A stretch of DNA of 42,447 nucleotides from Candidatus Nomurabacteria bacterium GW2011_GWA2_40_9 (GTDB lineage Bacteria; Patescibacteriota; Minisyncoccia; Phycocordibacterales; UBA9973), in contig LBZW01000001.1 in assembly GCA_000993955.1 (NCBI GenBank), positions 1 through 42,447 of the forward strand. The letters run 5' to 3'. The first letter of the stretch is position 1; each line of letters starts with the position of its first letter. Below the pieces are notes generated by a model that was not told the DNA's origin, made no database searches, and saw only the letters and a list, made by a program, of their open reading frames with translations. Positions 543 through 42,064 of this stretch are shown here, piece after piece. Made by a program: the position numbers and the translations under genes.

Positions 543-1217
543 ATGCCACGCAATGCAAGAGTTGACGTAGGAGGAGAAATTTATCATGTAATCAATCGTG
601 CAAACGGTTGTCTTCAGATATTTAACAAAGATGAAGATTATGAACTATTTGAAGAATTACTTTTTGAAACAAAAGAACTTTTTCATATGCGTATATTAGC
701 CTATTGTTTGATGCCAAATCATTTTCATTTAGTCCTATATCCTAAAAATGACGGGGATATGGGTTTATTTATGCATCGATTGAGTAATTCTCATACCAGA
801 AAAGTGCACGCACTCACAAATACAAATGGTAGTGGGCATTTGTATCAAGGTCGCTACAAATCTTTTCTCGTAGATAAAGAAAATTATCTTTCAGCGATTA
901 TTAAATATGTTGAGCGTAATCCAGTGCGAGCTAAGCTCTCTAAACTTTGTGAGGATTGGAAGTGGGGTAGTGCTTGGCTGCGTATCAGTGGAAAACTTGA
1001 GCAACATAAATTACTTGATCAAAAATCTTTTGATCTTCCAGATAATTATATTAAATGGATTAATATTTCTGAAGATGAAGATTTATTGAAAAATATTCGT
1101 GTTTCAGTAAAAAAAGGTGTTCCATATGGTAAAGAAAAATGGGTGGATAATATGGTATTGAAATACAAACTTGAATCAACCCTAAGATCCCAAGGAAGAC
1201 CAAGGAAAGATAGATGA
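543..1217 (+). CDS. IS200/RAYT-like HUH tyrosine (Y1) transposase
   Basis: 224 aa. HUH motif in LMPNHFHLVLYP; conserved YHVINRAN N-terminus; GHLYQGRYKS; catalytic-Tyr helix IIKYVERNPVRAKL. This pattern matches COG1943 / Y1_Tnp REP-associated transposases. The gene is flanked by inverted repeats. Confidence 0.8.
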   Translation: MPRNARVDVGGEIYHVINRANGCLQIFNKDEDYELFEELLFETKELFHMRILAYCLMPNHFHLVLYPKNDGDMGLFMHRLSNSHTRKVHALTNTNGSGHLYQGRYKSFLVDKENYLSAIIKYVERNPVRAKLSKLCEDWKWGSAWLRISGKLEQHKLLDQKSFDLPDNYIKWINISEDEDLLKNIRVSVKKGVPYGKEKWVDNMVLKYKLESTLRSQGRPRKDR

Positions 1218-1295
1218 TAGAAAAGAATGGTGGCTGTCCCCTTATTTCCCAAGGAAAGATAGATGATAGAAAAGAATGGTGGCTGTCCCCTTATT
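1200..1295 (+). repeat. 47-bp perfect direct duplication (1200-1246 and 1249-1295) carrying the right inverted repeat twice
   Basis: CCAAGGAAAGATAGATGATAGAAAAGAATGGTGGCTGTCCCCTTATT occurs twice with period 49. The first copy contains the transposase stop codon (1215-1217). AATGGTGGCTGTCCCCTT at 1226-1243 and 1275-1292 is the reverse complement of 492-509. Confidence 0.9.
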
Positions 1296-1330
1296 CCCCT
1301 TATTCCCTTATTCCTTATTCTCCTTATTCC
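1287..1330 (+). repeat. Degenerate tandem repeat C(2-4)TTATT, about 5.5 units
   Basis: CCCCTTATT CCCCTTATT CCCTTATT CCTTATT CTCCTTATT CC read directly. It starts inside the end of the second 47-bp copy. Confidence 0.85.
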
Positions 1331-1421
1331 TTTTCCCAGGAGAAGGGCTGGGGATGAGGTTATTTGTCGTATTTAGTTATCCACAGGTGGCTATTTTTAT
1401 CTTGTTTGCTATGTGAGAGAG

Positions 1422-1460
1422 AGTGGAGTAGAATGTAAGGCAAGTGGGAAAAAGTGGGAA
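1422..1460 (+). promoter_or_regulatory. Candidate MraZ operator: AGTGGGAA x2 with 10-bp period, plus AGTGGAGT 21 bp upstream
   Basis: AGTGGAGT at 1422-1429, AGTGGGAA at 1443-1450 and 1453-1460, 43-80 bp upstream of the mraZ ATG. MraZ is known to bind direct (G)TGGG-type repeats with helical periodicity upstream of its own gene. Confidence 0.5.
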
Positions 1461-1502
1461 GAAGAGTTTTTGTGTAGCTTTAGTAATAATTATTTTAATC
1501 AT

Positions 1503-1943
1503 ATGTTGATCGGCGAATACATACACACCATAGATGAAAAGAACAGAATGTCTTTGCCTGCAAAGTTCCGCAAGGAACTCGGCAAGAAAATAATAATTAC
1601 TCCAGGGCTCGACCAGTGTTTGTTTATTTTCACAATCAAAGAATGGGCAAAGGTTTCAAAGAAACTTTCAAATTCAGAGTCAGACTTGTCATTTCTCTCG
1701 AGAGATAAGAGAAGTTTCAACAGATTCATGTTTGGTCGTGCAGCAGAAGTGGAGCTAGACAGTATTGGTAGAATTTTAATACCGACATTCTTGAAAGAGA
1801 GGATAAATCTGAAGAATTCTGCAGTGGTAGTGGGCGTAGAAGACAGGGTAGAAGTGTGGAATGAAAAGGTTTGGGAGGTTTACAAAGAAAAGATAGAAAA
1901 AGAATCTGGCGAATTAGCAGAAAAATTGGGGAGTGCGAATTAG
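1503..1943 (+). CDS. mraZ: Transcriptional regulator MraZ
   Basis: MLIGEYIHTIDEKNRMSLPAKFRKELG.. and a second SpoVT/AbrB-like repeat (GRILIPTFLKE). First gene of the dcw cluster. The internal ATG at 1503 is preferred over the track start at 1413. Confidence 0.9.
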   Translation: MLIGEYIHTIDEKNRMSLPAKFRKELGKKIIITPGLDQCLFIFTIKEWAKVSKKLSNSESDLSFLSRDKRSFNRFMFGRAAEVELDSIGRILIPTFLKERINLKNSAVVVGVEDRVEVWNEKVWEVYKEKIEKESGELAEKLGSAN

Positions 1944-1945
1944 GT

Positions 1946-2908
1946 ATGAAGACAGAACAGAAGACAGTACACACAAGTGTTCTTTTAAAAGAAAGTATAG
2001 ACGGGCTGAATCTTAAGAAAAATCCCCAAAGCCTTGCTTCTGGAAATAATCTTGTAGTAATAGACGGTACATTTGGCGGAGGGGGACACAGTAGTGAGAT
2101 ATTAAAAAATTACCAAAATGTAAAAGTCATCGGTATAGATCAAGACAAGAGTGCATGGGAAAAGGCAAAAGATAAATTTGTAGGGTTGGAAGACAGGATT
2201 ACTTTTGTAAATGGAAATTTTCGAGACATAAAAGAAATTGTGGAAACTTCGGGTGTTGGACACCGAGATTCCAGGTGTCCAACACCCGAAGTAGATGGAG
2301 TATTACTTGATTTGGGACTCAGTTCTGATCAATTAGAGAATTCTGGTAGGGGATTTACTTTCATGAAAGATGAGCCGTTGTTTATGACTATGAAAGCAAA
2401 TCCAACATCTTCAGATTTAACGGCACAAGATATAGTAAATAATTGGAGCGAAGAAAATATAGCAAATATTATATATGGTTATGGTGAGGAGAGGTTTAGT
2501 AGAAGAATAGCAAGGCGGATAGTAGAAGCGAGGAAGGCAAAAGAGATAAAAACTACTTTTGAACTCGTAGAGATTATAAAAAATGCAGTGCCAAAAAAGT
2601 TTCAAAAAGGCAAGATAAATCCGGCTACAAAGACTTTTCAGGCATTGCGTATGGCAGTAAATGATGAATTGAATACTCTAGAGTCTGGGCTAAGTGGAGG
2701 GTTTGATATTTTAAAAAGCGGAGGCAGGCTGTCAGTCATATCATTCCACAGTCTCGAAGACCGGATAGTAAAGAATTTTTATAAAAAGAAAGTAGTAGAA
2801 GGCAAGGCAAAATTAATAAATAAGAAAATAATAACAGCAGGAAGTGAAGAATTGAAAACAAATAATAGATCAAGGAGTGCAAAATTAAGAATAATAGAGA
2901 AAATATGA
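1946..2908 (+). CDS. rsmH: 16S rRNA (cytosine1402-N4)-methyltransferase RsmH
   Basis: HTSVLLKESI, DGTFGGGGHS, VDGVLLDLGLSSDQLE, ISFHSLEDRIVK, NNRSRSAKLR. Start at the in-frame ATG 1946. Confidence 0.92.
   Translation: MKTEQKTVHTSVLLKESIDGLNLKKNPQSLASGNNLVVIDGTFGGGGHSSEILKNYQNVKVIGIDQDKSAWEKAKDKFVGLEDRITFVNGNFRDIKEIVETSGVGHRDSRCPTPEVDGVLLDLGLSSDQLENSGRGFTFMKDEPLFMTMKANPTSSDLTAQDIVNNWSEENIANIIYGYGEERFSRRIARRIVEARKAKEIKTTFELVEIIKNAVPKKFQKGKINPATKTFQALRMAVNDELNTLESGLSGGFDILKSGGRLSVISFHSLEDRIVKNFYKKKVVEGKAKLINKKIITAGSEELKTNNRSRSAKLRIIEKI
2024..2043. repeat. Palindromic element family C/G, single unit, in frame in rsmH
   Basis: CCCCAAAGCCTTGCTTCTGG is near-identical to the left arm of the atpG copy at 26613-26632. 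The preceding AAAATCCCCAAAGC also matches 26633-26646. Encodes NPQSLASG. Confidence 0.7.
2246..2292. repeat. Palindromic element family A, inverted dimer, in frame in rsmH
   Basis: ACTTCGGGTGTTGGACACC (2246-2264), 9-nt loop, GGTGTCCAACACCCGAAGT (2274-2292): a perfect 19-bp stem. Encodes ..TSGVGHRDSRCPTPEV.. just before the conserved DGVLLDLG. Confidence 0.9.
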
Positions 2909-3270
2909 ACGAAATAAAATTAAAAATGAAGAGTTATGCAAGTAATGTGAATATTATAGACAACAATGATGTAAAAAAACGCATACTAAATATTTTACTT
3001 GTATCTTTGGGTGGACTAGCACTCTTTTATCTTCTGATATTGAGTAATATGGTACTAAACATCATAGAACGCAGAACCCTAGAAGCTCATTCTCGTGTTA
3101 TATCAAATGAAGTTGCTAATTTAGAATTACAATATATAAATATATCAAGTTCTATTGATCTAAATTTATCTGCTACTTTCGGATTTAATGAAATTAAGCC
3201 AGATTTTGCTACACGAAAACCGCTTGGTTTGAATTCTAATACTGTAAAATTAGCGAAAAATGAAATCTAA
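2905..3270 (+). CDS. FtsL-like small bitopic membrane protein (positional call)
   Basis: 121 aa, one TM (ILNILLVSLGGLALFYLLILSNMV), then a coiled-coil-like segment. Lies between rsmH and ftsI with 4-bp and 11-bp overlaps. Confidence 0.4.
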   Translation: MNEIKLKMKSYASNVNIIDNNDVKKRILNILLVSLGGLALFYLLILSNMVLNIIERRTLEAHSRVISNEVANLELQYINISSSIDLNLSATFGFNEIKPDFATRKPLGLNSNTVKLAKNEI

Positions 3271-7618: not shown

Positions 7619-7648
7619 TTTTACATAAAATTACACTTTATTTCTCGA

Positions 7649-7690
7649 TTACCTAATCAAAACGGTCGTAAAAGTTAGGTAATTTGTTTT
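7649..7690 (+). repeat. 42-bp hairpin repeat, copy 1
   Basis: TTACCTAATCAAAACGGTCGTAAAAGTTAGGTAATTTGTTTT. An 8-bp stem TTACCTAA/TTAGGTAA with an 18-nt loop, followed by a T-tract. Lies in the divergent rmuC / PaaX-like intergenic region. Confidence 0.9.
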
Positions 7691-7710: not shown

Positions 7711-8316
7711 ATGGGAATTTTGGAGAAAGAAATAAAAATTAAAGATAAACGCAAAAATATTCAGAAAATAATTTTAAATACTATTTTTGCAGCTGGGATA
7801 CTTGGTGTGATGGTAGTAGCACCAAATGTTTTATCAGTTATAAAACAAATAGAAAAAGGAATAAAAAGAAAAAAGAATTTAAAATATTCTATCAATAGTT
7901 CTTTTGTACGACTCAGAGAGAAAGGGCTTATTGAAATAATAGAAGTAAATGGGAAAAGAGTTGCAAGGATAACACAAAAAGGGGAGTCGAAGTTGGATTT
8001 CTTGGATAGACATAATTTTAAATTAAAAATTCCAAAGAAATGGGATGGTCGTTGGAGAGTGGTGATATTTGATATAAAGGAAAGCAAAAAGAGAATAAGA
8101 GCACTTTTGAGGGTTACGCTTTCGCAGATTGGCTTTATTAGATTGCAAAATAGCGTTTGGGTTTATCCATATGATTGCGAGGACTTGGTCTCATTACTTA
8201 AGGCAGATTTTAAAATAGGTAGTGAGATTTTATATATGATAGTAGAAAAACTTGAAAATGATTGGTCCTTACGTAAAAAATTTAATTTACCTAATTCTGA
8301 CGGTCGTAAAAGTTAG
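7711..8316 (+). CDS. Membrane-anchored wHTH + PaaX-C/Cas2-fold domain protein
   Basis: N-terminal TM (IILNTIFAAGILGVMVVAPNVL); winged-helix-like segment (SFVRLREKGLIEIIEVNGKRVARITQKGESKL); WDGRWRVVIFDIKESKKRIRALLRVTLSQIGFIRLQNSVWVYPYD, which matches the PaaX C-terminal / Cas2-like beta-alpha-beta-beta-alpha-beta signature. Start taken at ATG 7711. The last 10 codons and the stop lie inside repeat copy 2. Confidence 0.5.
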   Translation: MGILEKEIKIKDKRKNIQKIILNTIFAAGILGVMVVAPNVLSVIKQIEKGIKRKKNLKYSINSSFVRLREKGLIEIIEVNGKRVARITQKGESKLDFLDRHNFKLKIPKKWDGRWRVVIFDIKESKKRIRALLRVTLSQIGFIRLQNSVWVYPYDCEDLVSLLKADFKIGSEILYMIVEKLENDWSLRKKFNLPNSDGRKS

Positions 8317-8328
8317 GTAATTTGTTTT
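8287..8328 (+). repeat. 42-bp hairpin repeat, copy 2
   Basis: TTACCTAATTCTGACGGTCGTAAAAGTTAGGTAATTTGTTTT. Differs from copy 1 only at 4 loop positions. Lies between the convergent PaaX-like and exonuclease genes. Confidence 0.9.
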
Positions 8329-12188: not shown

Positions 12189-13700
12189 ATGCAAGAAAAA
12201 AATTCTGAAAAATATTACACCACCATCGGGCTTGAAATACACGCAGAATTGAAGACAACTACAAAGATGTTTTGTAGTTGTAGAAATAACCCTGATGAAA
12301 CAAAACCAAATACAAATATCTGCCCTGTGTGCATGGCGCACCCTGGGGCATTGCCTGTAATAAATAAAAAAGCAGTTGAGAATGTGATAAGAGTTGGTCT
12401 GGCTATCGGTGCAGAGATTGCAGATTTTTCAGAATTTGATAGAAAGAATTATTTTTATCCCGACATCCCAAAAGGGTACCAGATTTCTCAATATAAATAC
12501 CCAATAGTAAAAGGTGGCAAACTAGCTGGTATGGATATCACTCGTATTCACTTAGAGGAAGATACAGCGAATAACAAACACCTGTCGGGTGTTGGACACC
12601 CGGAAATTCAGGACGAGTATTCACTCATTGACTTCAATCGTGCTGGCGTGCCACTGATGGAGCTTGTGACCGAGGCGCATACTTTTGAGACGAGTGAGGA
12701 GGCAGCAAAAGTTGCGAGTAATTTTGCAAAAGAATATCAGCTCCTCCTGCAGTATATAGATGCCTCAGAAGCGAATATGGAAAAAGGGGAGATGCGAGTG
12801 GAAGCAAATGTATCTGTCTCACCTGATAAAGATAAGAAATGGACTGCCTATGTGGAAGTAAAAAATTTAAACTCTTTCAAGAGCGTAGAAAAAGCTATCA
12901 AATATGAAGTAGAGCGAATGATAGAACTTTTTGAAGAAGGCAAAGAGAGTGAAATAGTAAAAGAAACTCGTGGCTTCGATGAAGCAAAGCAGAGGACTGT
13001 GTCTCAGCGTAAAAAGGAATCCAGTGAAGACTACAGATACTTCCCAGACCCAGACCTACCAAAGATGAAACTTCATGAAGCGTTTGATTTGGAAAAAGTG
13101 AAGCAAGAGTTACCTGAGTTGCCCATGCAAAAGCGCGTGCGATATAAGAATGATTTTGGAATAAAAGATGAAGATATAGAAATTTATATAAATGATAAAG
13201 AGCTTGCAAAATGGTTTGAAGAAGTTGCAAATCTTTTGTTTTCTCCCCCTGCCAGAGGGGGAGTGTCCGAAGGACGAGGGGGTGGGAGTGAAAAAATTAA
13301 AACAGCATCAAATTATATCACATCAGATTATTTGGGTATAAAGAAGTTCCAGCCAGAGGCAAGGCCTCTGGCTGCGACGAATTTTGCCGAGCTTATAAAT
13401 TTGGTTACAGAAAATAAAATCTCTTCTCGCGCTACAAAGGACATACTTGCGATGATAGTGATAGATGATGCGTCTCCATTAAAAATAGCAACAGAGAAAA
13501 ATTTGTTACAAAAAAATGATGAAGGCGAACTAAAAGGTATAGTAGAAAAAATACTTGCAGAAAATCAGCAAGTAGTGGCTACATACAAAGGCGGTAAAGA
13601 AAATGCTCTTATGTCCCTAGTGGGTAAAATAATAAAAGAAACAAATGGCTCTGCCAATCCACAGGTGGTAATTAAATTATTAAAAGAGTTGATAAAATAA
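12189..13700 (+). CDS. gatB: Asp/Glu-tRNA(Asn/Gln) amidotransferase subunit B
   Basis: GLEIHAEL, CPVCMAHPGALPV, RKNYFYPD, HLEEDT, FNRAGVPLMELVTE, and a C-terminal YqeY-like tail. TATAAT at 12175-12180 lies 8 nt before the ATG. Confidence 0.95.
   Translation: MQEKNSEKYYTTIGLEIHAELKTTTKMFCSCRNNPDETKPNTNICPVCMAHPGALPVINKKAVENVIRVGLAIGAEIADFSEFDRKNYFYPDIPKGYQISQYKYPIVKGGKLAGMDITRIHLEEDTANNKHLSGVGHPEIQDEYSLIDFNRAGVPLMELVTEAHTFETSEEAAKVASNFAKEYQLLLQYIDASEANMEKGEMRVEANVSVSPDKDKKWTAYVEVKNLNSFKSVEKAIKYEVERMIELFEEGKESEIVKETRGFDEAKQRTVSQRKKESSEDYRYFPDPDLPKMKLHEAFDLEKVKQELPELPMQKRVRYKNDFGIKDEDIEIYINDKELAKWFEEVANLLFSPPARGGVSEGRGGGSEKIKTASNYITSDYLGIKKFQPEARPLAATNFAELINLVTENKISSRATKDILAMIVIDDASPLKIATEKNLLQKNDEGELKGIVEKILAENQQVVATYKGGKENALMSLVGKIIKETNGSANPQVVIKLLKELIK
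12585..12603. repeat. Palindromic element family A, single unit, in frame in gatB
   Basis: TCGGGTGTTGGACACCCGG: a 7-bp stem. Matches the reverse complement of the intergenic copy 32881-32899 at 18 of 19 positions. Encodes LSGVGHPE between HLEEDT and the conserved YSLIDFNR. Confidence 0.85.
13243..13283. repeat. Palindromic element family E, in frame in gatB
   Basis: CTCCCCC-TGCCAGA-GGGGGAG-TG-TCC-GAA-GGA-CG-AGGGGGT. Same 41-nt architecture as 15025-15065 on the other strand. Encodes SPPARGGVSEGRGGGS. Confidence 0.85.
13350..13374. repeat. Palindromic element family C, single unit, in frame in gatB
   Basis: CAGCCAGAGGC-AAG-GCCTCTGGCTG: an 11-bp perfect stem. Encodes QPEARPLAA. Confidence 0.9.
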
Positions 13701-13707
13701 ATTTTTA

Positions 13708-13737
13708 CCTCCGCCGAAACGGAGGAGTGCCGAAGCA
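13708..13737. repeat. E-like double hairpin just downstream of the gatB stop
   Basis: CCTCCG-CCGAAA-CGGAGG-AG-TGC-CGAA-GCA. Same two-hairpin layout as family E (a pyrimidine/purine stem, then a small GAA-loop hairpin). Confidence 0.6.
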
Positions 13738-13786
13738 ATTGTGATTTTATTATAGCAAAATATAAATCAATGTTATTATTATACTA

Positions 13787-14656: not shown

Positions 14657-16528
14657 ATGGAAGAAATTTTAAAAAAAGATTTAAAACAAGAAATACAAAA
14701 ATTTTTTAAAGGGGATGTGGAAGATGGGGAAGAGACTCTCTCAAAGTATTCTAGGGATGCGAGTATTTTTGAAATTCGACCACAGTTGGTGCTTTTTCCA
14801 AAAGATACAGAAGATGTGAAAAGTTTAGTAAAGTGGGTCAGTGAAAATTGCGGTAGGCAAGACCTACCACAATTATCTATTACTTGTAGATGTGCAGGGA
14901 CGGATATGTCAGGCGGTGCTATAGGTGAATCTATTATCTTGGATTTTACGAGGTACATGAATAAGTTGATTGCATTTTCTCCCCTCCTTGTGGAGGAGGG
15001 GGTAGGGGGTGGTGATTCAAAATTACCCCCTCGCCCTTCGGGCACTCCCCCTTATCAAGGGGGAGAGGAAAACACAATCACGGTTGAACCTGGTATGTTT
15101 TATAGAGATTTTGAAAAAATAACTTTATCTAAAGGAATGATTTTGCCTTGTTATACTGCATCGAAAAGTTTAAATGCTATGGGTGGTATGTATGGAAATA
15201 ATTCTGCCGGAGAGCGAACACTCAAATACGGCAAAACTGACAATTATATCTTGGAATCAAAAGTAGTTTTCGGAGACGGGAATGAATATGTGGTGAAGCC
15301 ACTGACGGAAGAAGAATTGAACAAAAAAATATCTCAGAATGATTTTGAGGGAAATATTTATAAAAATATTTATGAGCTTATACAAAATAACCAAGAAGAA
15401 ATAAAAAATGCCAAGCCAAAAGTACACAAAAATTCTGCTGGGTATTATGTATGGAACGTGATGGGAGTAAATACGCAGGATGTGAAAAATTCTGCCGTCT
15501 TTACCCTTCCCGGAGTACCGGGTGGGACCTACGCCGATCAGGATTTTTCACATCCTGCGTATTTTGATTTAAACAAACTTCTCGTCGGCTCTCAGGGCAC
15601 ACTTGGCATAGCGACAGAAATTACTTTTAAATTAGTGCCAAATCCAAAGTACTCAAAACTTGTAGCAGTATTTATGAATGACCTGGCACCACTTGGGAAT
15701 CTCGTAGATGAGATTTTGGAATTAAATCCAGAGACGTTGGAAGCTTATGATGACAAGACTATGAAGCTCGCTGTCAGGTTTTTCCCAGATTTTTTGAAAA
15801 ATAAAGGGTTTATAGGCATGATAAAATTTATGTGGAGCTTCTTACCAGAACTCGGGATGACGATTACGGGAGGATTCCCTAAGCTTATTCTTCTGGCTGA
15901 ATTTGCCGGAGAAAATAATCTCGAAGTGCAGATAAAATGCAAAGCCCTGCAAGAAAAAATAAAACATTTTAACCTAAAAGTTCATATCACACATTCTACT
16001 GCTGAATCAAATAAATATTGGGACATTAGACGGGAGAGTTTTGCATTACTTCGCAAGCATGTAGCCGGCAAGCACACTGCGCCATTCATAGATGACATCA
16101 TAGTTCGTCCGGAATTCTTGCCGAAGTTTATTCCCCAGTTGAATGAGATCTTGAGAAAATATGATCTGACTTATACTATCGCAGGGCATGCAGGAGATGG
16201 AAATTTTCACATCATACCGCTCATGAATTTCTCTAGGCCTGATATGGGGCAGATAATTATGGAGCTATCAGAAAAGGTATATGACTTGGTTTTGAAATAC
16301 GAAGGCTCTATCACAGCAGAGCACAATGACGGCATTATCCGTACGCCATTCTTACAAAAAATGTACGGTGAGAAAATAATAGAAATATTTAAAGAAATAA
16401 AAAACATCTTTGATCTAAAATATATTTTGAACCCTGGCAAAAAAGTCCCCATAGAAGATGGCCAAGGCTCTAAAGAATTTATATTATCTCATATATATAA
16501 GGAGCATACGACGGTACACAAAGTCTAA
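14657..16528 (+). CDS. FAD-binding oxidoreductase (GlcD / D-lactate dehydrogenase family)
   Basis: N-terminal FAD_binding_4-like region (RCAGTDMSGGAIG), LVGSQGTLGIATEITFKL, and C-terminal HAGDGNFHI..GSITAEHNDG motifs. Carries two inserted repeat elements. Confidence 0.8.
   Translation: MEEILKKDLKQEIQKFFKGDVEDGEETLSKYSRDASIFEIRPQLVLFPKDTEDVKSLVKWVSENCGRQDLPQLSITCRCAGTDMSGGAIGESIILDFTRYMNKLIAFSPLLVEEGVGGGDSKLPPRPSGTPPYQGGEENTITVEPGMFYRDFEKITLSKGMILPCYTASKSLNAMGGMYGNNSAGERTLKYGKTDNYILESKVVFGDGNEYVVKPLTEEELNKKISQNDFEGNIYKNIYELIQNNQEEIKNAKPKVHKNSAGYYVWNVMGVNTQDVKNSAVFTLPGVPGGTYADQDFSHPAYFDLNKLLVGSQGTLGIATEITFKLVPNPKYSKLVAVFMNDLAPLGNLVDEILELNPETLEAYDDKTMKLAVRFFPDFLKNKGFIGMIKFMWSFLPELGMTITGGFPKLILLAEFAGENNLEVQIKCKALQEKIKHFNLKVHITHSTAESNKYWDIRRESFALLRKHVAGKHTAPFIDDIIVRPEFLPKFIPQLNEILRKYDLTYTIAGHAGDGNFHIIPLMNFSRPDMGQIIMELSEKVYDLVLKYEGSITAEHNDGIIRTPFLQKMYGEKIIEIFKEIKNIFDLKYILNPGKKVPIEDGQGSKEFILSHIYKEHTTVHKV
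14979..15065. repeat. Composite palindromic insertion: E-prime unit (14979-15012) plus family E unit in reverse orientation (15025-15065), in frame in the FAD oxidase
   Basis: CTCCCCTCC-TTGT-GGAGGAGGGG-GTAGGGGGTGG resembles the atpD copy. The reverse complement of 15025-15065 is CTCCCCC-TTGATAA-GGGGGAG-TG-CCC-GAA-GGG-CG-AGGGGGT. Encodes SPLLVEEGVGGGDSKLPPRPSGTPPYQGGE. Confidence 0.85.
15469..15564. repeat. 96-nt MITE-like element with 22-bp perfect terminal inverted repeats, in frame in the FAD oxidase
   Basis: AAATACGCAGGATGTGAAAAAT (15469-15490) and ATTTTTCACATCCTGCGTATTT (15543-15564) are exact reverse complements. The centre carries the GC hairpin CCCGG-AGTA-CCGGG. 96 nt equals 32 codons. 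Confidence 0.85.
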
Positions 16529-19928: not shown

Positions 19929-20141
19929 ATGAATAAGAAAGTAGACACAATATCTAATAACTTTAGTAAAATAGTCGATTCTTTTAAGGACAAATGGGTT
20001 GCTGTACCTCTAGATTATTCTGAGGTTGTTGCTAGTGCCGATACATTAAATGGTGTTACAAGTAAAATAAAGAAAAACAGTAATTTAAAAATATTTAAGG
20101 TGATTCCTTTTGATATGATTTATTCCCCATTTAATTTATGA
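19929..20141 (+). CDS. Small hypothetical protein (DUF5678-like by eye)
   Basis: 70 aa. The segment FKDKWVAVPLDYSEVVASADTLNGV..KIFKVIP resembles the short KGKWVAV..VVA..VP pattern of DUF5678. Its stop overlaps the next start (ATGA). Confidence 0.4.
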   Translation: MNKKVDTISNNFSKIVDSFKDKWVAVPLDYSEVVASADTLNGVTSKIKKNSNLKIFKVIPFDMIYSPFNL

Positions 20142-20545
20142 AGTATAGTTATTTAACTTCTTTTAATCCTAGAACTGGTCAGCATTTTCGTAGACCAATT
20201 GTTGATGTTGAAATCTTTGGTCCAACAGGAAATTTTAGTACTATCGCACTACTTGATTCTGGGGCGGATAACTGTCTTTTCAATATTGAATACGCAAAAG
20301 AAATAGGTATTGATTTAAATAAATGTACAAAAACTTCAACTACTGGTGTGGAGGGTGATAGGACAGATGTGTATCTTACTGAAATTTATATTCAAGTTAA
20401 ATTTTTAGATAAAATAAAAATAGAAGTAGGATTTATTGATAGCAGGTCTGTAAATGGCTTACTCGGTCAAATAGGATTTTTTGATTTGAATCGCATCAAA
20501 TTTGAGCGTGACCATGGAACTTTTGAAATAAATCCTGTGAAATAA
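20138..20545 (+). CDS. Retropepsin-like (clan AA) aspartic protease
   Basis: 135 aa. Active-site loop ALLDSGADNCLF (D-S-G-A) and C-terminal GLLGQIGFFD dimerisation-like segment. Confidence 0.7.
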   Translation: MKYSYLTSFNPRTGQHFRRPIVDVEIFGPTGNFSTIALLDSGADNCLFNIEYAKEIGIDLNKCTKTSTTGVEGDRTDVYLTEIYIQVKFLDKIKIEVGFIDSRSVNGLLGQIGFFDLNRIKFERDHGTFEINPVK

Positions 20546-20547
20546 TT

Positions 20548-21156
20548 ATGCACTTTAACCAAGAAAAATATATGTATAATCCGGGAGAGAATATTAAACT
20601 TTGGGATAAAATAGGATTATCTAAACAAGAGCTTGAAAAGATTGCCTTGGATTTTGAAAGACAAACAATAAAAAACCATGAAAATGTTAGGAAAACAGCG
20701 TGCTCTATTGAACAGGAGTTTGGGGAGCGTGGAGTTGATTTTGAGGGAATCATTTTTGCACAACTTTCAAAAGAGTTTAATCCAGAGGATGTTGATTTTA
20801 ATAATGAAATAGAAAAGAGTATGCGTAATATAGTTAGCACTAGTTACAGTCAATATATTGTTGACGGAGTTTATCCACGCACTCATCTAATTGAGCTTAA
20901 AAAGAATGAGGGGGGGGGTTATAGGATTAATTTTGATATTAATTATGAGTATAGAGATGCTCATCAATTGTTCCTTTTTATTGCAAGTAAAATTCCTGAT
21001 TTTTATCGTAAACTAGAAAAAGCTCGAATTGAAAGAAAACCGTTAGAGTTGGCACGTGATATTGAAAAACAATTTGGCCTTGGTATGTATCGTAAGATTA
21101 CTACAGCACAGGTTGCAGATGCACGTAAGTTGTTGTTTAAACTGGGAAAATTTTAG
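20548..21156 (+). CDS. Hypothetical protein, no recognisable domain
   Basis: 202-aa ORF starting 2 nt after the protease stop. Same strand and codon style. Confidence 0.45.
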   Translation: MHFNQEKYMYNPGENIKLWDKIGLSKQELEKIALDFERQTIKNHENVRKTACSIEQEFGERGVDFEGIIFAQLSKEFNPEDVDFNNEIEKSMRNIVSTSYSQYIVDGVYPRTHLIELKKNEGGGYRINFDINYEYRDAHQLFLFIASKIPDFYRKLEKARIERKPLELARDIEKQFGLGMYRKITTAQVADARKLLFKLGKF

Positions 21157-22329: not shown

Positions 22330-23221
22330 TTTAGAACATAATGGAGAGGTAGTAGAGGAGACAAGTCACGAAGTGACTATCTATGCAGAGCCGATTTTTC
22401 ATGTGGGTAATTTTGCTATCACAAACTCGCTTTTTACTACTTGGCTTGCAGTGCTTTTGATTGCTATATTTTCTCTCGTTATCCGATTAAATCTCAAAAA
22501 AGTTCCAGGGAAATTACAAAATATTTTTGAAGTTATGCTCGAGGGTGCTATGTCTCTCACTGATCAAGTCACAAATGACAGAAAAATAACGAATAAAATT
22601 TTTCCTTTAGTATTTTCTCTTTTTGTATTTATTTTAATAAATAATTGGATCGGGCTTTTGCCTTTTATTTCTGCTATTGGTTTTACGGTTGTTGAAAGTG
22701 GGCAAAATGTTTTTGTTCCTCTTTTTCGTGCGGGGACTGCGGATATCAACACCACCCTTGCTTTGTCGCTTATGATCATTGTCGCTTCAAATCTATTTGG
22801 CATACTCACTATCGGGCTCTGGAAACTTTTTAATAAATATGTTAATCTAAAAGCACTTGGTGAGATATTTACCAAGTTTAAAAAGGACAAGACTGTGGTC
22901 ATCGTATCTCCAATTTCTGTGTTTGTAGGGTTGCTTGAACTCATAGGAGAAATGGCAAAAATCGCATCGCTTTCTTTTCGTCTTTTTGGTAATGTTTTTG
23001 CAGGAGAAGTATTGCTCGCTTCTATGTCGGCAATATTTTTGTATATTTTACCGGGGCCGTTTTTGTTCCTTGAAGTTTTCATAGGACTCATTCAAGCATT
23101 GATATTTTCTTTGCTTGGGGCTGTGTATTTTACCATCGCAGCGCAGGATCATAATGAACACGAGGAGTATGAAACGGTGAGAGCTTTAGACTCTCATGAG
23201 AGTCTAAAGCTCTCACCGTAA
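22319..23221 (+). CDS. atpB: F0F1 ATP synthase subunit a
   Basis: Multi-TM, with the conserved Arg helix LSFRLFGNVFAGE. The C-terminal 15 aa are encoded by palindrome B. Confidence 0.9.
   Translation: MANNLEHNGEVVEETSHEVTIYAEPIFHVGNFAITNSLFTTWLAVLLIAIFSLVIRLNLKKVPGKLQNIFEVMLEGAMSLTDQVTNDRKITNKIFPLVFSLFVFILINNWIGLLPFISAIGFTVVESGQNVFVPLFRAGTADINTTLALSLMIIVASNLFGILTIGLWKLFNKYVNLKALGEIFTKFKKDKTVVIVSPISVFVGLLELIGEMAKIASLSFRLFGNVFAGEVLLASMSAIFLYILPGPFLFLEVFIGLIQALIFSLLGAVYFTIAAQDHNEHEEYETVRALDSHESLKLSP
23175..23218. repeat. Palindromic element family B forming the 3' end of atpB
   Basis: CGGTGAGAGCTTTAGACTCTC-AT-GAGAGTCTAAAGCTCTCACCG: a 44-nt perfect palindrome ending 0 nt before the TAA stop. 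Encodes TVRALDSHESLKLSP. Confidence 0.92.
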
Positions 23222-26930: not shown

Positions 26931-26959
26931 GGGGGAGATGTCCGAAGGGCAGAGGGGGT
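26931..26959. repeat. Family E core, intergenic between atpG and atpD
   Basis: GGGGGAG-ATG-TCC-GAA-GGG-CA-GAGGGGGT, 15 nt after the atpG stop. Compare gatB GGGGGAG-TG-TCC-GAA-GGA-CG-AGGGGGT. Confidence 0.8.
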
Positions 26960-26991: not shown

Positions 26992-28389
<1,398 letters not shown>

Positions 28390-28549: not shown

Positions 28550-29029
28550 ATGTCAAAGCAATTAAAACTAAAAATAGTAACTCCAGAAAAATTGGTTCTA
28601 GAAGAGCTTGTTGATGAAGTGATTATCCCTACTACAGAAGGGGAGATTGCTGTGTTGCCTGAACACATACCTATAGTTGCTGGACTCAAATCAGGAGATG
28701 TTGTCGGCATAGTAAACGGCGAGCATATTCCTTTTGCTGTCGTTGGAGGGTTCGTAGAAGTGAAATATTTACCAGAGGCAAGGCCTCTGTCTGCCAGAGG
28801 CCTTGCCTCTGGTATTACTGAAGTAGTGATTCTCGCTGATTTTGCAGAACATGTATCAGAACTTTCTGATGATGCTGTAACAAAAGCAAAAGCTCGTGCC
28901 GAAGAACTACGCAAACAAGCAGAAAACAAAGAAGTAGTAGACTTTGAACACTTTGAGTCCGAACTCGAGCGCGCTCTAACCAGAGTCAAAATCGCTGACA
29001 AGTGGAGAACTAGAAAGTATAGGAAATAA
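28550..29029 (+). CDS. atpC: F0F1 ATP synthase subunit epsilon
   Basis: LKIVTPEKLV..VIIPTTEGEIAVLPEHIPIVAGLKSG.., GGFVEV.., and a C-terminal helical hairpin. Carries a 15-codon palindrome insertion. Confidence 0.88.
   Translation: MSKQLKLKIVTPEKLVLEELVDEVIIPTTEGEIAVLPEHIPIVAGLKSGDVVGIVNGEHIPFAVVGGFVEVKYLPEARPLSARGLASGITEVVILADFAEHVSELSDDAVTKAKARAEELRKQAENKEVVDFEHFESELERALTRVKIADKWRTRKYRK
28770..28814. repeat. Palindromic element family C, inverted dimer, exactly 15 codons, in frame in atpC
   Basis: TACCAGAGGCAAGGCCTCTG-TCTGC-CAGAGGCCTTGCCTCTGGTA: a 20-bp perfect stem. Each arm contains the gatB unit CCAGAGGC-AAG-GCCTCTG. Encodes (Y)LPEARPLSARGLASG(I). Confidence 0.92.
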
Positions 29030-29794: not shown

Positions 29795-31777
29795 TTACAG
29801 CAAATTTTCTGGATCTATCAGCACTCTAAAATTAGAAGATATTTTATTTAAAGACAAAAGTTTTCTATAGAGGTCTTCCTCGATAGAAGCAGATGCAGAG
29901 AGTATAGGCAAAGACCATTTTTTAGGATCTGCTTTTATTAACATATTTACTGTATTTTTGTCTTTACTACTCTTTCTGAAACCACTGTAAAATACAGGGT
30001 TGTAATCTTTGAATATTTCACTCAAATTTTCTTTTGTCTTAGATGAATCTGTGTTGCTTTCTAAATAAGTAACTTTGATAAATCTAGAATATGGGGGATA
30101 GAGCATAGATTTTCTGTCTTCGAGTTCAGTCCTGATAAATTCTAATAGATTACTATTTTTTATGGCAAGCAGTGCCGAGTCTTTGTCGTTCTTTGTTTGG
30201 ATTATCAATTTATTTTTTGTTTTAGAAAGCATCAGGAGTATGAGTTGAATTATTTTTTCACTCATTTTAAAATTTGGGATACTCCAGAGTGAATCAAAAG
30301 AAGCAACGATACAGGTGTCTATTTGGTTTTTCATATAAAAAAGTGCTATCTCTGTGCCTATGAGTATAGTATTTTCTCCTGTCTCATATTCTGTAATTAT
30401 CTTTAGAGCACCCTTGGCTGTCTTTGCTGTGTCTTTGTCTAGTTTTAATATTTTAATGTGATCTAATTTTTCTTTTTTTAATTCTTCATACACTGTATCT
30501 ATACCTATGCCGAGTGGTACCAGATTCCAACTGTCGCATTTTACACATTTAACCTTCGTATTTTTGCTTGTGCCACATCTGTTGCAGACAAATACTCTCT
30601 TTTTTTTGTCTGGAGAGTGGTGCAGGACAACAGGAGTGGAGCATTCATCACAGCTTACTGTTTCTCCGCAATCTCTACATATAGTATAAGTAGCCAGCCC
30701 TTTTCGAAGAGAGAAAATAAAAACTTTCTCTTTTTGTTCTAGAGCACTTTTCAATTCTGCTATAGTTTCAGTCATCAACACCTTAAATTTGTTTTTTCTA
30801 CTCAATATTTCTATTTTTCCATCAAAAGAAATACGAAAAGACATGGGATGAACTTCCCCTAGTCCGTCTATCTCACGCCTAGCTATACTTTCAAAGCGTA
30901 AGAGGCTATCCGCCAAGATAAATTTTGCATTTATTTTAGAAGCAAAAATTTCAGTAAAAATTCGTAAATCAAAGTAGGGTTTGGCTATCATTTTATACCC
31001 ATTTCCGCTCTCGTGTTCTAAAATAATTGTTTCTATATCTCTTCTGTCTATAGATAGGTATGGGGCAGTACCGATAATCAAAATTGGATGCTCTTCTTTT
31101 ATGATATTTTCTATCTTTTCCATTTGTTTCTTTGCACTATACCCTCCATGGATAGAAATAGTAAATTGTTCAATACCCTTGGACAGGTACCCATACCAGT
31201 CGTCTATGTCATTTTTAGTGGGTAGTACTATAAAAACTGATTTTTTTTTAGCAAAATTACTTCTGATTAGGATTTTATAATAATCTATACGTTCTTCCAG
31301 TTTAGCTTGAAACAATAATTTTTCATTTTTTATCAGTGAGAGCTTTAGACTCTCTCTAGAGTCTAAAGCTCTCACTGAAAGTTCTTCTTTGTTTTGTTCA
31401 TTTTTTAATAGCTTGTTTTTAATTAATTCAGCAAATCTATCGTATTCTTCTTTTAAAATATTTGGGATGAGAGATGTGACCCCGTCGCTGTTGTTTTGAA
31501 CAAAATATTTACTACACAAAAACACAGATTCTAGAAATTCAGATTTAAAAATAGAGCCCTCTTTTATACTAAGTATTTTCTTTAGATTAAAATCCATGTC
31601 TTTTATATTTCTCTTTGCGTCAGTTACGTCTTCGGTAAAGACTACTAACCCCAACATGTTTTTATTGCGGAGAGATATAGTAACGATACTCCCATTTGGT
31701 ATGTCTTTTATTGAAAAATAGGTTAAATTTTCTTTCCAAAGTCCTTTTCTGAATGGGATTACCGTAACTATTTTCAT
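29795..31777 (-). CDS. priA: PriA-like primosomal protein N' with degenerate ATPase motifs
   Basis: PriA architecture with the Cys-rich Zn module (CRDCGETVSCDECSTPVV..CNRCG..CVKCDS). The expected Walker A, DExH and motif VI positions read LFQAKLEERIDYY, ILEHESGNGYK and LLMLSKTKNK. Confidence 0.75.
   Translation of the reverse strand: MKIVTVIPFRKGLWKENLTYFSIKDIPNGSIVTISLRNKNMLGLVVFTEDVTDAKRNIKDMDFNLKKILSIKEGSIFKSEFLESVFLCSKYFVQNNSDGVTSLIPNILKEEYDRFAELIKNKLLKNEQNKEELSVRALDSRESLKLSLIKNEKLLFQAKLEERIDYYKILIRSNFAKKKSVFIVLPTKNDIDDWYGYLSKGIEQFTISIHGGYSAKKQMEKIENIIKEEHPILIIGTAPYLSIDRRDIETIILEHESGNGYKMIAKPYFDLRIFTEIFASKINAKFILADSLLRFESIARREIDGLGEVHPMSFRISFDGKIEILSRKNKFKVLMTETIAELKSALEQKEKVFIFSLRKGLATYTICRDCGETVSCDECSTPVVLHHSPDKKKRVFVCNRCGTSKNTKVKCVKCDSWNLVPLGIGIDTVYEELKKEKLDHIKILKLDKDTAKTAKGALKIITEYETGENTILIGTEIALFYMKNQIDTCIVASFDSLWSIPNFKMSEKIIQLILLMLSKTKNKLIIQTKNDKDSALLAIKNSNLLEFIRTELEDRKSMLYPPYSRFIKVTYLESNTDSSKTKENLSEIFKDYNPVFYSGFRKSSKDKNTVNMLIKADPKKWSLPILSASASIEEDLYRKLLSLNKISSNFRVLIDPENLL
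31333..31378. repeat. Palindromic element family B, in frame in priA
   Basis: TCAGTGAGAGCTTTAGACTCT-CTCT-AGAGTCTAAAGCTCTCACTGA: a 21-bp perfect stem. The core GTGAGAGCTTTAGACTCT is identical to the atpB copy. On the minus strand it encodes SVRALDSRESLKLSL. Confidence 0.92.
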
Positions 31778-37890: not shown

Positions 37891-37933
37891 GATGATTATA
37901 TTATATCAGAATATTTTTATAAAAAAAGCAAAT

Positions 37934-37967
37934 TTACCCAACTCTGACGGTCGTAAAAGTTAGGTAA
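37934..37967 (+). repeat. 42-bp hairpin repeat, copy 3 (diverged)
   Basis: TTACCCAACTCTGACGGTCGTAAAAGTTAGGTAA, 44 bp upstream of the perM start on the minus strand. This is the same relative position as copy 1 to rmuC. Confidence 0.85.
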
Positions 37968-38019
37968 TATTTTAAATACAAAAATTTGCATAAAAAACAG
38001 TTTTTGCTATACTTTAGTT

Positions 38020-41242: not shown

Positions 41243-42064
41243 ATGAGAAAAATCACGACAAAAGGAATACAAATAGCAGTTTTGCAAAAAGATAATGAAG
41301 ATTATATTTCATTGACAGATATGGCAAAATTTAAAGATGCTGAAGCCACTGGCATTGTTATTGCACATTGGTTATCTACAAAGTACACCATACAATTTAT
41401 GGGTTCCTGGGAGCAGATGTATAATTCTAATTTTAATGTTACTGAATTCGGTAACATTAGAAATGAAGCTGGTTCTAATGGTTTTATTCTCTCTTCTTCT
41501 AAATGGATACATAAAACTAATGCGATTGGTATAAAATCTACAACTGGTAGATATGGCGGAACTTTTGCTCACAAAGATATTGCTTTTGAATTTGCAACAT
41601 GGATTTCTCCAGAATTTAAACTCTACTTAATTAAAGAATTTCAAAGACTTAAAATTGAGGAAAACGATAGACTCGTTCTTGGCTGGGACGCAAAAAGAGC
41701 TCTTACTAAAATAAACTACAAAATACACACAGACTCTATAAAAGAAAATATTGTATTACCACAAAAGTTATCTATTAAAGAAGCTACTGTTGTGTATGCA
41801 AACGAAGCTGATGTTTTGAACATTGCTCTTTTTGGTATAACTACACAGAATTGGAAGACTAAAAATAAAAACAAAGAAGGTAATATGAGAGATTATTCTG
41901 ACGTGTATCAGCTTATTTGTCTTGCCAATCTTGAAACTTTAAATTCTGAATTTATAAAAATGGGCATGAGTCAGAAAGATAGACTGCTAAAATTAAACGG
42001 AATTGCAATTAGTCAAATGAAATCACTTTTAGTAAATAACACAGTCAAGAAACTTTTGAAATAA
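41243..42064 (+). CDS. KilA-N domain-containing DNA-binding protein
   Basis: ..EDYISLTDMAKFK.., IAHWLSTKYTIQFMGSWEQMYN, GRYGGTFAHKDIAFEFATWISPEFKLYLIKEFQRLK, INYKIHTDSIKE, VYANEADVLNIALFG: the widespread KilA-N family pattern. Confidence 0.85.
   Translation: MRKITTKGIQIAVLQKDNEDYISLTDMAKFKDAEATGIVIAHWLSTKYTIQFMGSWEQMYNSNFNVTEFGNIRNEAGSNGFILSSSKWIHKTNAIGIKSTTGRYGGTFAHKDIAFEFATWISPEFKLYLIKEFQRLKIEENDRLVLGWDAKRALTKINYKIHTDSIKENIVLPQKLSIKEATVVYANEADVLNIALFGITTQNWKTKNKNKEGNMRDYSDVYQLICLANLETLNSEFIKMGMSQKDRLLKLNGIAISQMKSLLVNNTVKKLLK

Follow-up and report, generated by a model that had tools for sequence, protein, structure and literature searches.

The first 42,447 nucleotides of contig LBZW01000001.1 of Candidatus Nomurabacteria bacterium GW2011_GWA2_40_9 (assembly GCA_000993955.1, positions 1-42,447), hereafter the window, by which we mean this whole stretch, carry several copies of a short GC-rich repeat that we call family E. 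Its G-rich strand holds a pyrimidine arm, a complementary purine arm and, beyond a small hairpin, a second purine arm that is the mirror image of the first. The stems and the mirror arm covary among copies, sites that are filled in one genome are empty in its relatives, copies sit in frame inside housekeeping genes, and the element is spread across bacterial phyla. We consider it probable that family E is a small repeat defined by its structure as single-stranded DNA, with a triplex-type fold, that has been inserted repeatedly, rather than an RNA gene or a protein module.

The window has a GC content of about 36% and is dotted with short, very GC-rich islands. Searches with its proteins put it in Patescibacteria, close to Paceibacteria/Nomurabacteria. 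Its open reading frames (ORFs) include GatB (12189-13700), an FAD-linked oxidase (14657-16528), AtpG and AtpD. Four of its roughly six copies lie inside ORFs, in gatB, in the FAD oxidase gene (two) and in atpD. A looser version with a shorter turn between the purine and mirror arms is called E-prime. The copies and their parts are as follows.

13242-13283, forward strand: family E in gatB, 42 nt, in frame, peptide SPPARGGVSEGRGG.
gatB copy, 5' half, forward strand: T 13242; pyrimidine arm CTCCCCC 13243-13249; loop TGCCAGA 13250-13256; purine arm GGGGGAG 13257-13263.
gatB copy, 3' half, forward strand: T 13264; mini-hairpin GTCC-GAA-GGAC 13265-13275; mirror arm GAGGGGG 13276-13282; T 13283.
15025-15066, reverse strand: family E, antisense, in the gene of the FAD-linked oxidase; peptide LPPRPSGTPPYQGGE.
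FAD oxidase copy, 5' half, reverse strand: pyrimidine arm CTCCCCC 15065-15059; loop TTGATAA 15058-15052; purine arm GGGGGAG 15051-15045.
FAD oxidase copy, 3' half, reverse strand: T 15044; mini-hairpin GCCC-GAA-GGGC 15043-15033; mirror arm GAGGGGG 15032-15026; T 15025.
14979-15015, forward strand: E-prime in the FAD oxidase gene; pyrimidine arm CTCCCCTCC, loop TTGT, purine arm GGAGGAGGGGG, linker TA, mirror arm GGGGGTGGTG.
14979-15065, both strands: composite E-prime/E insertion in the FAD oxidase gene, 87 nt, 29 codons.
26931-26959, forward strand: degenerate intergenic E, 14 nt past the atpG stop (which ends at 26916).
27316-27351, forward strand: E-prime in atpD, in frame; pyrimidine arm, TTCG loop, purine arm GGGGAGGG, linker CA, mirror arm GGGGTGGGGG.
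1329-1358, forward strand: a further intergenic three-arm motif of the class II kind described below, CCTTTTC-CCAG-GAGAAGG-GCTGG-GGATGAG.

An earlier note on this DNA had described a two-hairpin module shared by gatB and, inverted, the FAD oxidase gene. The sequences at 13243-13283 and, as reverse complement, at 15025-15065 read exactly as it quoted them, as do the peptides, which are the true in-frame translations of the two genes; the common module really measures 42 nt, and a repeat search returned 13242-13283 and 15025-15066 as a 42-nt inverted pair. In both full copies CTCCCCC and GGGGGAG are complementary across a 7-nt loop, and folding each full copy as single-stranded DNA or RNA gave two hairpins with the 3' G-run unpaired; these ViennaRNA folds contain no triplex modelling and leave the third arm unpaired. 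Both hairpins of the claimed module are therefore there, but its 3' GAGGGGG is no stray run: it is the mirror of the GGGGGAG arm and covaries with both the purine and the pyrimidine arms. The E-prime versions that the note had seen in the FAD oxidase gene and in atpD are present and related to E by the same three-arm design, with a hairpin that is imperfect yet present; in the FAD oxidase E-prime the mirror arm GGGGGTGGTG is the mirror of GGAGGAGGGGG, and T faces both A's. The gatB and atpD copies are solo in the window. The FAD oxidase copy, which had been taken as a solo insert, is half of the 87-nt inverted pair, in which E-prime (forward) and E (reverse) stand with their mirror arms face to face across a 9-nt AT spacer; as single-stranded DNA the composite folds at -28 kcal/mol (z = -4.6). 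Downstream of atpG the note's core exists with the T.G pair (purine arm GGGGGAGA, T, GTCC-GAA-GGGC, mirror arm AGAGGGGG), but the 5' pyrimidine arm has decayed and the sequence has no stable fold. The arm type of the 1329-1358 motif is the one found in Caulobacter and Phenylobacterium copies.

Chance was rejected as an explanation for these copies by comparison with shuffled sequence: the 27-nt core has two matches in the window versus 0.00 expected, the first-hairpin pattern three versus 0.02, and a generic three-arm detector found five motifs versus 0.2 in shuffles that preserve local composition.

Just past the gatB stop (13700), CCTCCGCCGAAACGGAGGAGTGCCGAAGCAATTG at 13708-13740 looks by eye like a decayed E-type unit: it has a pyrimidine/purine hairpin, an A and a TGCC-GAA-GCA remnant, and we saw no mirror arm in it.

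Copies beyond the window come from a genome scan (pattern GGGGGAG N3-5 CCGAAGG N3-5 AGGGGG, one genome per species, at least 120 loci) and from a metagenome scan for the window subtype (GGGGGAGTG N CCGAAGG N CGAGGGGG); all copy counts outside the window are counts among the matches listed in these two scans (about 0.96 Mb of fetched DNA). The stems of the two full copies in the window differ solely by a T-to-C and an A-to-G change at the two sides of one pair of the GAA-capped mini-hairpin, which the earlier note had read as a compensatory double change. This argument was correct, since many copies now show covariation. Both bases of that pair were left free in the metagenome pattern, and in 111 distinct copies it was C-G in 76, G-C in 19, T-A in 13, G.A in 2 and G.T in 1, so that 108 were Watson-Crick versus about 58 expected from the marginals; the structural constraint claimed for this hairpin is borne out.

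The rest of the mini-hairpin behaves in the same way. A MAFFT alignment of 58 full elements was structurally inconsistent because stem lengths vary, and column counting was dropped in favor of a 15-nt alignment, free of gaps and with the triloop at its centre, together with per-copy parsing. In 59 distinct mini-hairpins, 94.6% of cells were paired versus 55.6% in shuffles, and the covariation score was 0.903 versus 0.188, a level reached by 0 of 500 shuffles; registers slid along the sequence gave only 30-45% pairing. The parser imposed the three inner pairs and left the two outer pairs free, and these two were paired in 92% and 81% of cases, with 34 and 28 double changes. Among the loci of the genome scan the arms of the small hairpin vary widely and keep their complementarity. 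Uncompensated changes are thus not equally frequent in stems and loops; pairing and covariation are far above those of the shuffles.

The first hairpin and the mirror arm are linked in turn. An upstream complementary pyrimidine arm is found in nearly every match of the genome scan, though it was absent from the search pattern; the exact TCCCCC arm occurs in 85 of 135 scanned copies, and the remainder mostly have variant or extended arms. For the mirror arm we took any perfect 7-bp pyrimidine/purine hairpin in the fetched DNA, excluding matches to the fetch patterns. A mirror of the hairpin's own purine arm lay within 45 nt on the 3' side in 93 of 113 asymmetric independent hairpins (82%), versus 12% of hairpins for other permutations of the same heptamer. 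The rule is obeyed by arms of several types (GGGGAGG/GGAGGGG, GGGGAGA/AGAGGGG, GAGAGGG/GGGTGAG, GAGAAGG/GGATGAG and GGGGAAG/GAAGGGG). In copies with arms that run on to an eighth position, the triplets of pyrimidine, purine and 3' arm at that position were C:G:G in 38 cases, T:A:A in 25 and G:C:T in 8, with few exceptions. The third-arm base that faces a purine-arm A was A in 395 cases, T in 206, C in 26 and G in 14, that is, A or T in 94% despite the G-rich context, in a tally where some of the purine-arm A's are fixed by the fetch patterns. Both the bases opposite A and the triplet pattern fit the pairing rules of purine-motif triple helices (G.G-C, A.A-T, T.A-T).

Copies elsewhere vary around these three arms. 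Locus L171 (3636-3767, reverse strand) has three tandem units of purine arm, mini-hairpin and mirror arm at 53-nt spacing, with a proper pyrimidine arm only before the first. A human-gut metagenome subfamily (L148, L151, L152, L165, L168) carries an extra nested hairpin ..CCTCTCCCCCTGTGTTCCTGAAAGGAATATAGGGGGAG.. in loop 1, and in Anaerolineae copies (L097, L006, L058) hairpin 1 is lengthened by an AT-rich stem; this hairpin can accommodate large insertions with all three arms preserved. In contigs of about 40% GC (L133, L150, L177, L189, L197, L198, L224, L243, L244 and others) a conserved 22-nt extension, roughly TTTCACTTACTTNCAGAATTTT, stands before the pyrimidine arm, and this lineage appears to have a longer repeat unit.

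Whether the fold matters as DNA or as RNA bears on what family E is. The earlier note had worded the double change in RNA terms (U-A becomes C-G), and one could read the copies as hairpins acting in cis in messenger RNA, as a 3' stabilizer or decay barrier like repetitive extragenic palindromes (REPs) or as a translational pause. Both hairpins would fold as RNA too, and the atpD E-prime has a loop of the C(UUCG)G kind. Intergenic copies in AT-rich loci are in excess between convergent genes (24 of the 54 with both neighbors called), where REP-like 3' elements lie, and genic copies in these loci are antisense in 20 cases versus sense in 8, a mild excess of copies that put the C-rich strand in the transcript. 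The latter figure is also the answer on strand bias relative to transcription, which the earlier note had raised: the bias is weak, and it is confounded. Yet genic copies occur in both orientations, sense in gatB, Dus and GT9 and antisense in the FAD oxidase, RsmA, GatA and RNase R genes, so that some genes would yield G-rich RNA at the element and others C-rich RNA. The loops point in the same direction. In 91 pattern-free copies the linker loops include GGA (25), GAA (20), GCA (11), GGCA (9) and GTA (8), the pair that closes the loop is C:G in 57 of 59, and loop 1 is GCGAAGC in many Dehalococcoidia copies. Only GNA loops make the extraordinarily stable DNA mini-hairpin d(GCGNAGC), RNA counterparts being far less stable (PMC13037366), and a C:G closing pair is better than G:C by about 3 kcal/mol (PMC3201870); the dominant GNA triloops closed by C:G are thus a motif of DNA-specific stability. 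The conserved mirror arm would have no role in a two-hairpin RNA, and RNA is reported not to form purine-motif triplexes (PMC4666352). With Rfam 15, gathering-score scans gave two tRNAs only in the window and nothing in 14 copy-rich loci, and an E-value scan around 13150-13400 returned chance-level matches only (E >= 0.66). PIT and BoxC repeats, to which we return below, have neither promoter nor terminator activity (PMC4666352, citing Maher's group). Taken together, the GNA triloops closed by C:G, the mirror arms of purine-motif type and the copies on both strands favor action at the level of single-stranded DNA rather than RNA, and we regard an RNA-level element as unlikely. Intrinsic terminators were rejected, as no T-run follows the hairpin, and so was sequestration of Shine-Dalgarno or anti-Shine-Dalgarno sequences, given inconsistent spacing and the genic and antisense copies.

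Within DNA, a switch between G-quadruplex and hairpin has been considered: a quadruplex-hairpin-duplex switch was proposed for the related BoxC-like E. coli sequence GGGAGAGGGTTAGGGTGAGGG (PMC5100583), and E has two G5 runs. Besides its two long G-tracts, however, it has only the GG of the mini-hairpin and falls short of four tracts, and a quadruplex would leave the mirror rule, the A/T rule opposite A and the complementary pyrimidine arm unexplained; for the E. coli repeat TM_ECO, a nuclear magnetic resonance (NMR) spectrum with 18 imino signals fits a triplex and not a quadruplex (PMC4666352). We give this switch very little weight.

Comparison with orthologs places the copies as insertions. 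In gatB the element is an in-frame insertion of 14 codons relative to the 86%-identical ortholog P0003 (loci L002, L003); it is held by the 99% and 93% relatives, with an A-to-G change in loop 1 as the sole difference of the element in the 99% strain, and nearly all other orthologs are without it. Look-ups for an identical protein gave no result, either for the GatB of the window or for P0002. The FAD oxidase site is empty in many orthologs (P0140, P0127 and P0142, for example), and in L126 and L127 (86% and 73% relatives) it holds a related but different inverted pair, made of three-arm motifs with short loops. AtpD has 462 residues here versus 451 in the modal ortholog, E-prime having swapped a native loop of 9 residues for 13; orthologs P0339 and P0346 have E plus E-prime at the same site, and others show eroded relics. 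An arrangement of E with E-prime like that of P0339 and P0346 is found in GatA (L195), unlike that of the FAD oxidase pair. The insertion sites of GatB, FAD oxidase and AtpD are hypervariable among orthologs, and the lengths of these three proteins vary by up to about 80 residues in close Paceibacteria.

No consistent target-site duplication was found at the junctions of 68 AT-rich copies: 44 of 68 had no direct repeat, and the others had 2-5 nt as expected in T-rich flanks. In these copies (A)TTTT stands before CTCCCCC and the 3' side ends in T. A classical transposable element of the miniature inverted-repeat kind (a MITE) was rejected on this ground and because the ends TTCTCCCCC ... GAGGGGGT are not mutual inverted repeats. 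Core lengths of 39 or 40 nt in genes versus 36-41 nt between genes track a subfamily whose loop 1 is longer and whose boundaries are uncertain, and are uninformative on frame.

In AT-rich contigs the same E subtype is found in frame inside the Pfam domains of RsmA/KsgA, Dus, amidase (GatA), GT9 and RNase R, and a further copy lies in a gene of a Flavobacteriaceae metagenome-assembled genome that reads as MnmE by its motifs (by eye). One could suppose that such inserts are selected as flexible Gly/Pro/Arg-rich loops, the DNA symmetry being a by-product. All four sense genic copies do share one frame (SPPxxGGV(S/A)EGRGG), and inserts fall in inter-domain or variable loops, in GatB at residues 352-367, which separate GatB_N from GatB_Yqey, and in AtpD at residues 106-117, which separate the N-terminal barrel from the nucleotide-binding domain. 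But the antisense copies use three frames and give the unrelated peptides PPRPSGTPPYQGGE, NPLALRALPLSRG and TPSPFGHSPLSGGE, most copies are intergenic, close orthologs function without the insert, and the stem and mirror covariation is at the nucleotide level, non-synonymous changes included. Frame usage looks like a filter on tolerable peptides rather than selection for a peptide, and we find a protein-level module highly improbable.

A separate case is locus L156, where an ORF at 720-3035 (reverse strand), by eye a UvrD/PcrA-like helicase with an apparent intein-like block, has an antisense E near its C-terminal part, adjoining another GC-rich insert.

To our knowledge, BoxC/PIT/TM repeats, which have been known for some 30 years, have no accepted function or mode of spread. 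They are found in E. coli and further Proteobacteria (Bachellier, 1990s; Hoyne, Maher et al., 2000; Holder et al., 2015) and are the closest relatives of family E that we could identify. In a class II intrastrand triplex the pyrimidine arm, the purine arm and the mirror arm lie on one strand (Holder et al., 2015; PMC4666352), and BoxC/PIT/TM_ECO follows the pattern CCCTCNCCC-N3-6-GGGNGAGGG-N3-GGGNGAGGG (PMC4666352, citing work on BoxC and that of Hoyne, Maher et al., 2000). The isolated TM_ECO strand forms a triplex of great stability in vitro, as seen by circular dichroism and by the NMR signals mentioned above (PMC4666352). In E. coli these repeats lie between genes without exception, have no strand bias and frequently form inverted pairs of two subtypes (PMC4666352). 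Family E shares with them the order of C-rich arm, loop, complementary G-rich arm, turn and mirrored second G-rich arm, the dispersal as multicopy GC-rich islands of about 35-50 nt, the closely spaced inverted pairs of two subtypes, and the lack of both a consistent strand preference and flanking mobility genes; E-prime, with its 2-nt linkers, fits the class II description directly. It differs in its turn, which is T plus a GNA-capped mini-hairpin (12 nt in the window, GTCCGAAGGAC after T, and up to about 25 nt elsewhere), and in its arms, G5AG/GAG5 and not GGGNGAGGG, so that neither E nor E-prime fits the TM_ECO pattern; copies that do fit it occur in relatives' loci (L002, L127, L053, L091). 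Whereas TM_ECO is always intergenic, E and E-prime are in frame inside housekeeping genes here, and E extends far beyond Proteobacteria, to Chloroflexota, Bacteroidota, Firmicutes, Actinomycetota, Planctomycetota and Patescibacteria. Published screens allowed a second loop of 1-6 nt (ITxF) or 0-10 nt (Hoyne et al.) (PMC4666352); the linker of E exceeds both limits, so that they would have missed it. Judged by its sequence design, family E is a hairpin-linked variant of this known kind of intrastrand-triplex repeat.

The mini-hairpin itself has a known counterpart. The E linker is C-GNA-G and often CCGAAGG, the heptamer of the mini-hairpin of the ssiA priming signal (PMC13037366). The mini-hairpin is, however, a structural motif and no repeat family, and ssi sites are single functional sites at plasmid and phage origins, undispersed and without mirror G-arms (PMC13037366, PMC3201870).

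Two other kinds of repeat resemble family E in their distribution. Like REPs and their doublets (REPINs), it consists of short multicopy GC-rich hairpins, single or as inverted doublets, among which the 87-nt E-prime/E pair is REPIN-like; both leave no target-site duplication and are presumed to act as single-stranded DNA, and one gene resembling a REP-associated tyrosine transposase (RAYT) lies in the window. REPs, in contrast, have no mirror third arm, are species- or clade-specific and are extragenic by definition, whereas E has no 5' GTAG or CGTC tag (68 AT-rich copies) and its core is nearly identical across phyla. Rickettsia palindromic elements (RPEs) are said to have been described by Ogata et al. 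in 2000 as selfish palindromic DNA in frame in protein-coding genes. They measure about 100-150 bp, are AT-richer, are limited to Rickettsia and relatives, and have no mirror-arm design. The likeness lies in translated, in-frame palindromic inserts in essential genes of a small, AT-rich, gene-dense genome and in presence or absence that differs between related species, RPEs being tolerated in surface loops; family E is 39-52 nt, extremely GC-rich and found across phyla, and is set apart by inspection and description rather than filed as an RPE. RPEs are also mentioned in PMC1779305 and PMC10969869. CRISPR repeats were rejected, as there is no array.

The repeat family that the earlier note had recognized is genuine, but it is not confined to the genome of the window: it is spread over many bacterial phyla, and its copies in other genomes lie mostly between genes. 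Matches of the genome scan came from Dehalococcoidia, Anaerolineae, Caulobacterales, Hyphomicrobiales, Reyranella, Bacteroidota, Dialister, Clostridia, Acidimicrobiia, Phycisphaerales, Abditibacterium, Aggregatibacter and Bordetella, and replicons of Azospirillum, Rhizobium, Sinorhizobium and Deinococcus have similar intergenic units, often as inverted pairs 80-120 nt apart. Metagenome matches listed were mostly on contigs of 30-50% GC. BLAST of E found no match in 5,426 E. coli genomes and seven weak matches only among phages. Our literature search found no paper containing the alphaproteobacterial, Caulobacter or Dehalococcoidia E sequences, and none linking bacteria of the Candidate Phyla Radiation with such repeats.

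This distribution also bears on whether E serves the host as a DNA signal in replication or repair, through ssi-like priming, exclusion of single-stranded DNA-binding protein (SSB), a pause site, or the generation of variability that has been proposed for TM_ECO. The CCGAAGG mini-hairpin belongs to ssiA of the RSF1010-type origin, which the primase RepB' recognizes, and SSB binding to mini-hairpins is poor (PMC13037366). Between strains of E. coli, TM_ECO loci show more rearrangement than control loci do (PMC4666352), and the three insertion sites of the window are hypervariable, as described above. For 89 of 122 copies, the G-rich strand of E coincides with the strand that is locally C-skewed. 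On the other hand, replication and gene direction are confounded in GC skew taken over 4-14 kb, the window copies mostly run opposite to the global bias, and we draw no mechanism from it. Scattering over unrelated genes and spacers, with presence or absence between close relatives, is what one expects of an insert that is selfish or neutral and not of a positioned signal, and copies decay, both at 26931-26959 and as relics at the AtpD site of orthologs. A host-beneficial signal therefore seems to us improbable.

The model that we favor, a repeatedly inserted single-stranded-DNA repeat with a triplex-type fold, can be laid out as follows. The G-rich strand reads (T)TT, CTCCCCC, a loop of 4-7 nt, GGGGGAG, T, a GC-rich GNA-capped mini-hairpin and GAGGGGG. 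When this strand is single, the first two arms would pair as a Watson-Crick hairpin, the rigid mini-hairpin would turn the chain, and the mirror arm would settle into the major groove, antiparallel to the purine arm, with the triplets G.G-C, A.A-T and T.A-T of a class II purine-motif intrastrand triplex; E-prime would do the same with a 2-nt turn. Elements of this kind would have inserted repeatedly, in either orientation and without target-site duplication, at many unrelated sites. Where a genome is AT-rich and gene-dense, only frame-keeping copies in permissive loops would persist, to be translated as Gly/Pro/Arg-rich peptides and then to decay slowly. Covariation of arms and stems would reflect selection on the ability to fold as single-stranded DNA, presumably needed for propagation or maintenance. 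We infer folding at the DNA level and triplex formation from the published work on TM_ECO oligonucleotides and mini-hairpin DNA.

An enzyme that might propagate such an element is encoded at one end of the window.

543-1217, forward strand: RAYT-like Y1 (HUH) tyrosine transposase gene (PF01797 Y1_Tnp, E = 4e-14).

Its best NCBIfam match is NF047646, 'REP-associated tyrosine transposase', at 67.6 bits over 2-145 of 146 and below the 80-bit equivalog cut-off, and the HUH motif (HFH) and the Tyr are visible in its translation. RAYTs are thought to move hairpins of the REP type and their REPIN doublets in single-stranded form (PMC3116915, PMC5581495; see also PMC3733652, PMC3479197). The nearest three-arm motif, at 1329-1358, is 112 nt downstream of the gene, and none was found upstream of it when the longer contig of a sister strain was searched. 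It is conceivable, if rather doubtful, that a single-strand-specific HUH enzyme such as this RAYT-like protein mobilizes family E. The gene is followed by a 49-nt tandem duplication (1200-1248, 1249-1297) and a run of CCTTATT-like repeats, and in the 99% sister strain a fragment of an IS66-family transposase lies just upstream of the RAYT-like region (L247, 135-848).

Several points weigh against the model as a whole or against this enzyme. The RAYT-like gene is bracketed by 35-nt inverted repeats of a different family (480-514 and 1221-1255, GGGGACAGCCACCATT...), E is without the GTAG/CGTC tag that marks classical REPs, a search of about 240 other fetched loci gave no Y1 homolog near E copies, and Holder et al. 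saw no remnants of a transposase near TM_ECO (PMC4666352). In vivo footprinting with dimethyl sulfate detected no TM_ECO triplex, and the duplex prevails when the complementary strand is given (PMC4666352). A triplex has been seen physically only for TM_ECO oligonucleotides and is predicted for E itself, whose arms offer only 7 triplets, at the short end of the range of the published screen. The third window copy (26931-26959) is without a pyrimidine arm, so the structure is not kept everywhere. Copy counts may overstate the number of independent three-way events, as the subfamilies GTG, ATG, CTG and TG possibly represent one lineage each. Finally, the weak orientation biases, of the G-rich strand relative to local skew and of genic copies relative to transcription, may leave some room for a role linked to transcription or replication; they are confounded by gene direction.

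The comparative results extend what was known of these repeats in several ways. Family E adds a wider, previously unscreened variant of BoxC/PIT/TM, with a core that is almost identical in Chloroflexota, Alphaproteobacteria, Bacteroidota and Patescibacteria. The three-way covariation of the arms supports a triplex design in vivo, as a comparative and indirect sign, which biophysics has not reached, that the fold matters in cells. The in-frame colonization of the GatB, AtpD, GatA, RsmA, Dus, RNase R and MnmE genes is a phenomenon like that of the Rickettsia RPEs, and affects gene calling, ortholog alignment and protein modeling in Patescibacteria. Naturally filled and empty sites are available for studying the mechanism, and the nearby RAYT-like gene provides a concrete candidate enzyme that is open to testing. 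A bolder and more speculative proposal, which we think unlikely, is that the three-arm fold itself is the recognition and propagation structure of pan-bacterial non-autonomous mobile elements ('triplex REPINs') serviced by HUH/RAYT-like transposases. If this were true, BoxC/PIT/TM, the hairpin-linker repeats of Alphaproteobacteria and Chloroflexota and the in-frame inserts of Patescibacteria would be one system, the first mobile DNA to owe its identity to a triple helix, and would steadily supply new Gly/Pro-rich loops to the essential proteins of ultra-small bacteria.

The same genes and their surroundings contain inserts of other kinds. GatB has a second hypervariable site (about 12580-12640; alignment columns 131-152) with palindrome-like peptides (SDVGRPKFGRPTSD in P0120, SREASRASDRGDLSESSGD in P0056), whose sequences suggest other GC-rich hairpin inserts. 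At 15469-15564 the FAD oxidase gene holds an unrelated palindromic in-frame insert whose 26-nt arms, separated by 44 nt, show 96% complementarity (peptide ...FTLPGVPGGTYADQDFS...); the peptide family GLTLPGVPVGTHT.QN is found at this site in several orthologs (P0123, P0155, P0124, P0127) and, in P0123 and P0155, also at the other insertion hot spot, which suggests, on these peptides, another family of mobile in-frame elements in Paceibacteria. Three palindromic families recur in the window: GTGAGAGCTTTAGACTCTC.GAGAGTCTAAAGCTCTCAC at 23177-23221 and 31336-31380; CCAGAGGCAAGGCCTCTGG at 13353-13375 (inside gatB, 70 nt downstream of E), 28772-28794 and 28794-28816; and TTACCTAA..GGTCGTAAAAGTTAGGTAAT at 7637-7688, 8275-8326 and 37922-37973, at gene ends. 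A KilA-N domain protein is encoded at the window end (41243-42064), and between prfA and the gene of an RRM protein (20138-21156) there are two small ORFs whose function is unknown, of which one gives a weak aspartyl-protease match; in a region made up otherwise of housekeeping genes, these may be derived from mobile elements or phages.

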